In this document: positions 48,812-50,881 of the stretch, one piece after another
Layout: each line of letters starts with the position of its first letter
Numbering within the stretch: the stretch's first letter is position 1
Assembly (NCBI RefSeq): GCF_002854065.1
Contig: NZ_CP024147.1
Length of the DNA: 64,000 nt
Direction: 5' to 3' (one strand)
Origin: Escherichia coli
Lineage (GTDB): Bacteria; Pseudomonadota; Gammaproteobacteria; Enterobacterales; Enterobacteriaceae
Notes under the pieces: generated by a model
What the model was told of the DNA's origin: nothing
Seen by the model: the letters and a program-made list of their open reading frames with translations, nothing else
Database searches by the model: none
Program-made: the position numbers and the translations under genes

Positions 48812-49399
48812 TCAATCTGCGTGTTGCATAATATCTGCAGTAATCTTCATAGCGACTGCATTAATATTATCCTCAGTTTGTGACATGCCAGTATGAGAGG
48901 TACAATCTTCTTCAAAGAATTTCTGTAGTGTTACCAGGGTATCACTATCAATGGGGATATTTTCCTCCCCACGGAGAATGGAAATGCCCATTCCCTGGAC
49001 ACTAGCCTCATCGAAATTAACCCGATAGAGACGGGTATTAAACATCCAGGCTTTTGTTAAAACAGAACAGTTGAAATGGCAATTGCTTAAATTGGCATTA
49101 TTAAAATTAACATTAGCCATATTAGAGCCGGTACATATAACCATTTCGAGGAACGTATTTGTTAACCGCGTAAAAAAGAGTTTGCTATCAATTAAGTTTA
49201 TATTCTGGAGGGTTGCTTTATTCAGGTTGACACGAGACAGATCAGCATGTTCAAAGTTAATTAAATCAAGTTTAGAGAAGCTAAGATCGGCTCTAAATAA
49301 ATTAATATATGGCGCTATTACTTTATAAAGATTTACCTCAGCCATGTATGCCATATAAAAATTTGAATAATCAAGGAAGGTATTTTTAATATTGGCTCT
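48812..49399 (-). pseudogene. yjcF: yjcF 3' fragment (pentapeptide-repeat protein split by IS1)
   Basis: Frame is open from the IS1 junction (RANIKNTFLDYSNFYMAYMAEVNLYK...) through track ORF 48812..49354; pentapeptide repeats (ADLSRVNLNKATLQNINLIDSKLFF...NFNNANLSNCHFNCSVL). Confidence 0.9.
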
Positions 49400-49414
49400 G
49401 GTAATGACTCCAAC

Positions 49415-49918
49415 TTATTGATAGTGTTTTATGTTCAGATAATGCCCGATGACTTTGTCATGCAGCTCCACCGATTTTGAGAACGACAGCGACTTCCGTC
49501 CCAGCCGTGCCAGGTGCTGCCTCAGATTCAGGTTATGCCGCTCAATTCGCTGCGTATATCGCTTGCTGATTACGTGCAGCTTTCCCTTCAGGCGGGATTC
49601 ATACAGCGGCCAGCCATCCGTCATCCATATCACCACGTCAAAGGGTGACAGCAGGCTCATAAGACGCCCCAGCGTCGCCATAGTGCGTTCACCGAATACG
49701 TGCGCAACAACCGTCTTCCGGAGCCTGTCATACGCGTAAAACAGCCAGCGCTGGCGCGATTTAGCCCCGACGTATCCCCACTGTTCGTCCATTTCCGCGC
49801 AGACGATGACGTCACTGCCCGGCTGTATGCGCGAGGTTACCGACTGCGGCCTGAGTTTTTTAAATGGCGGAAAATCGTGTTGAGGCCAACGCCCATAATG
49901 CGGGCGGTTGCCCGGCAT
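49415..49918 (-). CDS. insB: IS1 InsB
   Basis: 167-aa ORF identical to copy 1 InsB. Confidence 0.95.
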
Positions 49919-50112
49919 CCAACGCCATTCATGGCCATATCAATGATTTTCTGGTGCGTACCGGGTTGAGAAGCGGTGTAAGTGAACTGCAGTTGCCATG
50001 TTTTACGGCAGTGAGAGCAGAGATAGCGCTGATGTCCGGCAGTGCTTTTGCCGTTACGCACCACCCCGTCAGTAGCTGAACAGGAGGGACAGCTGATAGA
50101 AACAGAAGCCAC
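49837..50112 (-). CDS. insA: IS1 InsA
   Basis: 91-aa ORF identical to copy 1 InsA. Confidence 0.95.
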
Positions 50113-50167
50113 TGGAGCACCTCAAAAACACCATCATACACTAAATCAGTAAGTTGGCAGCATCACC

Positions 50168-50881
50168 ATTGGCTCTATTCATTGTTGCATTGTAGAATTG
50201 AACATGCATAGCGGAGCATGAATTTAGAGTTCCGTCAGTCATTTTTATCTGAGCGAAATATGAGTCATCGAGAATACAATTATCAAAAAGTATTTTTTCC
50301 ATTATGGCGAAATTAAAATTCGTTTTATACATATTACAGTCCTGGAAAATAGCGTTTTGTAGTCTGCAACCTGCAAAATTCGAATTGGATAAATCTTCAT
50401 CTTTAATCACGATACCTTTCAGGCTAAGGTGTGAAAAATCGTAACCACCATTTACTGTCTGTGGGATTTCGATAGTATTATTATGGACGGTGACATTATT
50501 TATAAAATATACCACCTTAATTGACACTTCCTTATCTTTATTAAGGTAAACTCTTCTCGTAATGCTATCGTCACATTTATTATTTGCATATGAAGCTATA
50601 TCTATAAAATATTTATGTATTTTCCTGTCCGTTTCTTTCGTGATTTTTCCTGATGGTAAACTATCATAAATTCTTTTCATTTTCTGAATCAAGCCTATCA
50701 CTTTTTCATGATCATCCATTTTGAAAAGAGAGAGGGCTTTATTGTCAATTAACGTGTTTTTATGATGTTTGCTGTAATTATCTGATTTTGTTTTCTTTGT
50801 ATGTGATGGACTTGTGACAGAGTGGTTATCGTTAATCAGGCAAAGAGGGAAAAACATATTATTTAAACCATTATAGCGCAT
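50168..50881 (-). pseudogene. yjcF: yjcF 5' fragment (238 codons up to IS1 junction)
   Basis: Track ORF 50141..50881 (MRYNGLNNMFFPLCLINDNH...); last 9 codons of that ORF read into the IS1 end; AT-rich; pentapeptide repeats (LSNSNFAGCRLQNAIFQDCNMYKTNFNFAIM...). Confidence 0.9.

Follow-up and report, generated by a model that had tools for sequence, protein, structure and literature searches.

In a 64,000-nucleotide stretch of Escherichia coli DNA (contig NZ_CP024147.1 of assembly GCF_002854065.1; hereafter the window), the gene yjcF, also annotated as espX5, is split by a complete copy of the insertion sequence IS1, and a second, identical copy lies just beyond its stop codon in the same orientation. 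The pair was almost certainly produced by two separate simple transpositions of one IS1 isoform into the AT-rich yjcF/espX5 locus of an IS1-rich lineage, a reading that nothing contradicts. The copy inside the gene (IS1-b) is as described in an initial annotation made from the sequence alone. That description was incomplete, as the second, co-oriented copy at 48002..48769 (IS1-a) had been overlooked.

Two identical IS1 copies at yjcF/espX5

IS1-b was found by direct reading of positions 48700..51000 and by comparing the element with the rest of the window, where the set of IS1 open reading frames (ORFs) appears twice in the ORF list. The features of the locus, in order of position, are:

47993..48001: left copy of the IS1-a target-site duplication, TCTCTTTTA
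48002..50167, minus strand: IS1-yjcF'-IS1 unit, 2,166 bp, two direct IS1 copies around 630 bp (48770..49399)
48002..48769, minus strand: IS1-a, complete at 768 bp and intergenic between yjcE and yjcF, identical to IS1-b at 768 of 768 positions and in the same orientation
48017..48520, minus strand: insB' frame of IS1-a (ORF list)
48439..48714, minus strand: insA of IS1-a (ORF list)
48457..48463, minus strand: A6C site of IS1-a
48770..48778: right copy of the IS1-a target-site duplication, TCTCTTTTA, 33 bp from the yjcF stop codon at 48812..48814
48812..49399, minus strand: 3' fragment of yjcF/espX5, codons 236-430 and stop, lacking its own promoter and start codon
49391..49399: left copy of the IS1-b target-site duplication, ATTGGCTCT, read as R-A-N on the minus strand
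49400..50167, minus strand: IS1-b, a complete 768-bp IS1 with the left inverted repeat (IRL) at the 50167 end and the right inverted repeat (IRR) at the 49400 end
49415..49918, minus strand: insB' frame of IS1-b
49837..50112, minus strand: insA of IS1-b, 91 amino acids
49855..49861, minus strand: A6C slippery site of IS1-b, AAAAAAC at IS1 nucleotides 307-313
50141..50881, minus strand: truncated 5' ORF of yjcF/espX5, YjcF residues 1-238 followed by GDAANLLI from the IS1 IRL, 246 amino acids
50168..50176: right copy of the IS1-b target-site duplication, ATTGGCTCT

The initial annotation had placed a complete 768-bp IS1 at 49400..50167, and direct reading confirms this. The 9-bp duplication that it reported at the two junctions is likewise present, as ATTGGCTCT at 49391..49399 and 50168..50176; on the coding (minus) strand it reads AGA-GCC-AAT, that is R-A-N at residues 236-238, and it occurs in both yjcF fragments. 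The chance that two fixed positions match over 9 bp is 4^-9 = 3.8e-6. Removal of IS1-b and one copy of the 9-mer rejoins the fragments, as had been proposed, into a single yjcF/espX5 ORF of 1,293 nucleotides (430 amino acids plus stop, 431 codons). The 5' fragment ends in ...FYNATMNRAN, the eight residues GDAANLLI and a stop. The 3' fragment continues from the duplication as ...RAN followed by IKNTFLDYSNFYMAYMAEVNLYK... (also written ...RANIKNTFLDYSNFYMAYMAEVNLYK...), down to the stop at 48812; the longest ORF within it has 180 amino acids (48812..49354).

IS1-a lies 33 bp downstream of the yjcF stop codon, between yjcF and a hairpin at 47901..47959. The two copies are about 1.4 kb apart and both are oriented like yjcF. 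The 630-bp segment between them (48770..49399) contains the 3' 195 codons of the gene.

Both IS1 copies look fully functional, with all coding and terminal features intact, and are probably still mobile. The terminal inverted repeats are imperfect, 18 of the 23 end bases matching between the two IS1 ends. A -1 frameshift at the A6C site gives an InsAB' fusion of 232 amino acids, the insB' frame being open. InsAB' scores 243.8 bits against the NCBIfam model NF033558 (transpos_IS1; cut-off 100) and is identical to WP_095033700.1, named 'IS1-like element IS1B family' by the Prokaryotic Genome Annotation Pipeline (PGAP). The window IS1 matches IS1A/IS1E of K-12 at 760 of 768 positions, the eight nucleotide differences giving two amino acid changes in InsAB', and differs by a single nucleotide from the copy in strain VE-F10. 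Published features of IS1 are a length of 768 bp, the A6C frameshift, a 232-residue InsAB' and an 8- or 9-bp duplication (PMC12428005). The element of the window has the same length, A6C site and InsAB' size and a 9-bp duplication, and so does not differ in kind.

Empty alleles and the origin of the two insertions

Alignment with E. coli K-12 MG1655 and with other strains, the check proposed in the initial annotation, reconstituted yjcF. In MG1655 the gene (b4066) is intact, as had been stated there, with 1,293 nucleotides and a single ATTGGCTCT at the homologous position. After removal of both IS1 copies and of one copy of each 9-mer, the window aligns with MG1655 without gaps over 2,020 bp at 98.4% identity (33 mismatches), and the rebuilt yjcF differs from that of MG1655 by 22 nucleotides and 14 amino acids. 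The statement that this genome is not identical to MG1655 was thus true, though understated: because the region is only 98.4% identical to K-12, the window DNA belongs to a different E. coli lineage.

A search with the IS-free flanking DNA gave E. coli strain 100416 (NZ_CM128593.1; human stool, The Gambia) as the closest complete genome, at about 99.97% identity. Its espX5/yjcF is intact and one nucleotide away from the rebuilt gene, and the 3' remnant of the window is 100% identical to it over 631 bp. Around the locus, 8,000 bp align without gaps and with 3 mismatches. ATTGGCTCT and TCTCTTTTA each occur once, at the expected place, in both MG1655 and strain 100416. Strain 100416 is collinear with the whole 64-kb window; 62.4 kb of alignment contain about 15 mismatches and 2 gap positions, and apart from the two IS1 insertions there are no structural differences. 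Both sites are also empty in the Logan contig ERR13669426, whose yjcF carries an indel of 1 bp.

Repeats are typical breakpoints of short-read assemblies. The draft assembly GCA_035821435.1 is 100% identical to window positions 50092..56881 (6,790 bp), a match that crosses the junction between yjcF and IS1-b (junction b) and ends 76 bp into IS1. The exact truncated YjcF of 246 amino acids is encoded on four to five public contigs, including GCA_035821435.1 and an NCBI contig of 4,639,454 bp. In the species-representative genome set, a search for the exact junction gave no match.

These comparisons show two simple insertions, because each IS1 keeps its own duplication and the inner 630 bp are native and collinear with the empty allele; nothing between or around the copies is inverted, missing or repeated. 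The initial annotation had called IS1-b a simple, unrearranged insertion rather than a recombination scar, and the intact duplication together with the single 9-mer in empty alleles upholds this. IS1-b entered yjcF at codons 236-238, a staggered cut giving the usual 9-bp duplication. The gene can now give at most a truncated product of 246 amino acids, its 3' 195 codons being left without promoter or start codon. IS1-a entered downstream of the stop codon and generated its own 9-bp duplication. The later insertion may have come from the earlier copy, and such local hopping would still amount to two events.

The G+C content of yjcF is 33%, against 51% for the window, and that of the 69 bp around each IS1 target is 28-29%. 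IS1 prefers AT-rich targets, and the low values at both sites fit this preference. The lineage can be regarded as IS1-rich because strain 100416 has IS1 at 38 places at least. With some 40 IS1 copies in 4.6 Mb, the chance of some pair lying this close was estimated as roughly one in two; two copies within 1.4 kb are not very surprising.

Two points limit this account. No independent assembly with the IS1-a junction of the window (junction a) was found, and the loss of YjcF function that goes with it would follow from the truncation of a protein that has no established function. The first point also bears on whether one or both IS1 copies might be a misplaced repeat, since IS1 is multicopy and short reads do not easily resolve identical copies separated by 630 bp. 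Such an assembly artefact is nevertheless very unlikely: assemblers do not create perfect 9-bp duplications of 9-mers that are single-copy in empty alleles, and junction b recurs in the separate draft GCA_035821435.1, which breaks within IS1 as expected.

A single-step origin, whether through unequal crossing-over or through intramolecular replicative transposition of IS1, would agree with the complete identity of the copies at a distance of 1.4 kb, through which one may have donated the other, and with the report that IS1 transposition is mainly replicative (PMC12428005). Here, however, the copies are direct, nothing is inverted or missing, each copy has both halves of its own duplication, and the 630-bp segment that a tandem duplication would repeat is not repeated. 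The established model of intramolecular replicative transposition has two outcomes: a deletion that leaves one copy, or an inversion with inverted copies and split duplication halves. A one-step origin is accordingly rated slightly below the artefact, as highly improbable. Least credible of all, to the point of being negligible, is arrival of the IS1-yjcF'-IS1 unit as one composite transposon. Two identical direct IS1 copies around a short segment do have the architecture of Tn9 (IS1-cat-IS1), but the 630-bp passenger is the native continuation of the gene, collinear with and 100% identical to the empty allele of strain 100416. Each IS1, moreover, has its own 9-bp duplication, and the outer flanks differ (TCTCTTTTA on the left, ATTGGCTCT on the right).

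After two separate insertions, homologous recombination between the direct repeats could delete the 630-bp remnant and leave a single IS1 with unmatched flanks. Transcription from the yjcF promoter could read through into IS1; because both copies are oriented like yjcF, such read-through could feed IS1 transcription.

IS1 at the locus across E. coli

A population survey covered 5,426 complete E. coli genomes and an interval of 1.75 kb. The two-IS1 arrangement was present in none of these genomes, nor was there a contiguous match to junction b (IS1 at ATTGGCTCT) in any of them. Junction a gave a contiguous match only in strain D5, where an IS1 of 94% identity lies at the same 9-mer, there TCTCTTGTA; the D5 insertion is an independent event at the IS1-a site. 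In other E. coli strains IS1 was mapped to 10 other sites in the interval, each with its own 9-bp duplication, among them:

E6474: IS1 at the start codon, duplication CGCATAAAA
64EVA: duplication CACTTTTTC
PKF8: duplication TAGAGAAGC
MLI106K4 and Iso00041: duplication TCTGGAGGG
DAX4: duplication TGTTACCAG
VE-F10 and EEC_W5: duplication GAACATGCA, 23 bp from the IS1-b insertion point
ATCC 98082: duplication GTGAAGCTA
KMi006: IS1 at 1541..2308 of the extracted locus (L019), duplication TACAGTCCT / TACAATCCT, with one mismatch

The mismatch in KMi006 reflects either a mutation after insertion or a recombinant. Use of the IS1-b 9-mer in VE-F10, PEC399, LR-29-1 and EEC_W5 was considered and rejected, both strains that were checked (VE-F10 and EEC_W5) having GAACATGCA instead.

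The first nine mapped IS1 copies were all oriented like yjcF, and a synthetic query with a flipped IS1 returned 19 more genomes, with IS1 in the opposite orientation. An orientation bias at the locus was therefore rejected as an artefact of a query that held IS1 in one orientation, with pieces joined on one strand. In total, about 28 of the 5,426 genomes carry IS1 in the interval, at many sites and in both orientations.

The gene yjcF is thus a recurrent target of IS1. With 51,624 IS1 places counted in 4,777 genomes, or about 10 per genome, a uniform-insertion model expects about 19 IS1 in 1.75 kb across the 5,426 genomes, and the enrichment to about 28 is too weak to call a hot spot. It is unlikely that the locus is a real IS1 hot spot or that loss of an effector-like gene has been repeatedly favoured. 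Support for such a reading comes from the roughly 28 genomes, from the recurrence of the IS1-a 9-mer in at least two other lineages (D5 at the same site, 15.03CC 1 bp away) and from independent frameshift alleles. If it were true, the two-IS1 state would be an intermediate caught on the way to deletion of yjcF.

Strain 15.03CC (NZ_AP027470.1; locus L020, 3152..3919) has a single IS1 without duplication, which joins the yjcE-yjcF intergenic region to the middle of yjcF. This IS1 has one end at a distance of 1 bp from the IS1-a target, and yjcF has lost about 700 bp of its 3' part. The strain shows what an IS1-associated deletion product looks like, although its lineage is a different one and its IS1 is oriented the other way. 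In E. coli MC1061 (NZ_CP169569.1, 4203444..4205860) espX5, an IS1A transposase, yjcE and nrfB are annotated together, which suggests an IS1-associated deletion from yjcF to nrfB in this K-12 derivative.

IS-free 1-bp frameshifts in yjcF/espX5 were found in XJ34 (locus L004, 1686..2977) and in the Logan contig ERR13669426 (locus L009, 3250..4543). Because close relatives carry such alleles, yjcF decays by more than one route. A candidate intermediate with IS1-b only, on Logan contigs, was rejected; its C-terminal ORF of 180 amino acids comes from a frameshifted, IS-free allele.

The disrupted gene and its surroundings

Pentapeptide repeats occupy residues 148-373 of the rebuilt YjcF (Pfam PF13599 and PF00805; eight domain hits, E <= 0.001), and IS1-b breaks the protein at residues 236-238. 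Because this break falls in the middle of the repeat domain, loss of YjcF function is a reasonable expectation. NCBIfam models gave sub-threshold similarity of the rebuilt protein to HetL, PipB2 (44 bits, cut-off 354), PipB (37 bits, cut-off 274) and Qnr. PGAP names the orthologue 'pentapeptide repeat-containing protein YjcF' or 'T3SS effector pentapeptide repeat protein EspX5', and it is from annotation that the putative role as a type III secretion effector is derived. By title and abstract, the espX5 papers listed appear to be genome surveys, and no experimental function for yjcF/espX5 was found; a literature search for yjcF together with IS1 returned nothing relevant.

The gene is non-essential and the allele of the window is a routine IS1 knockout. 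The kind of event is fully known, a textbook IS1 disruption, with yrhA::IS1E of MG1655 as its annotated equivalent. There, too, a non-essential gene is annotated as two fragments on either side of a 768-bp IS1, and the offset of 9 bp between the end of the element and the start of the second fragment is as at yjcF. The K-12 case differs in the gene, in the IS1 isoform and in having one IS1 only at the locus. The likeness of the window to Tn9 is that two identical direct IS1 copies flank a short segment. Unlike in Tn9, the passenger, a 3' gene fragment without a promoter, is at its native place, and there is neither a duplication around the whole unit nor a sign of movement as a unit. Other IS1-split yjcF/espX5 alleles have in common with the window an IS1 with a 9-bp duplication, whereas the two-IS1 arrangement of the window is seen in none of the 5,426 complete genomes.

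For yjcF/espX5 the fitting annotation is a two-fragment pseudogene disrupted by IS1, and each IS1 copy should be entered as a mobile element. Both insertions can usefully serve as lineage markers, since no complete RefSeq E. coli genome has junction b. The direct IS1 pair predicts an unstable locus, in which recombination would remove 1,398 bp; this predicted instability matters for strain typing, for the quality control of assemblies and for virulence-gene screens that score the presence or absence of espX5. Beyond annotation the importance is little.

The gene yjcE is convergent with yjcF and has its stop codon at 47879..47881. The region between the two genes contains one further feature:

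47901..47959: extended hairpin between the convergent yjcE and yjcF, -34.2 kcal/mol, z = -8.25, none of 200 shuffles reaching this stability

The core of this hairpin is AAAGGUGCAA-AAGA-UUGCACCUUU, followed by UU on the minus strand, and it is probably a shared bidirectional terminator of yjcE and yjcF. IS1-a now separates it from yjcF. A simple consensus terminator scan of 47800..51100 reported no terminators and did not flag this hairpin.

Upstream of the locus, positions 16916..18496 (plus strand) hold an intact ORF of 526 amino acids between malM and ubiC, whose orthologue in strain 100416 is annotated as 'SopA family protein'. Pentapeptide-like repeats were seen in it by eye, and it may be a second, undisrupted effector-like gene in the window. 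In the 48 kb upstream, only two 1-bp indels separate the window from strain 100416, at window positions 26802 and 40356. The former lies in ORF 26535..27497 (plus strand; 320 amino acids in the window), a gene of the DUF2713 family that is frameshifted in strain 100416 according to PGAP. The latter is placed by coordinate mapping in the ssb/uvrA intergenic region. In strain 100416, aphA (locus L008, 13171..13884) is annotated with an internal stop.
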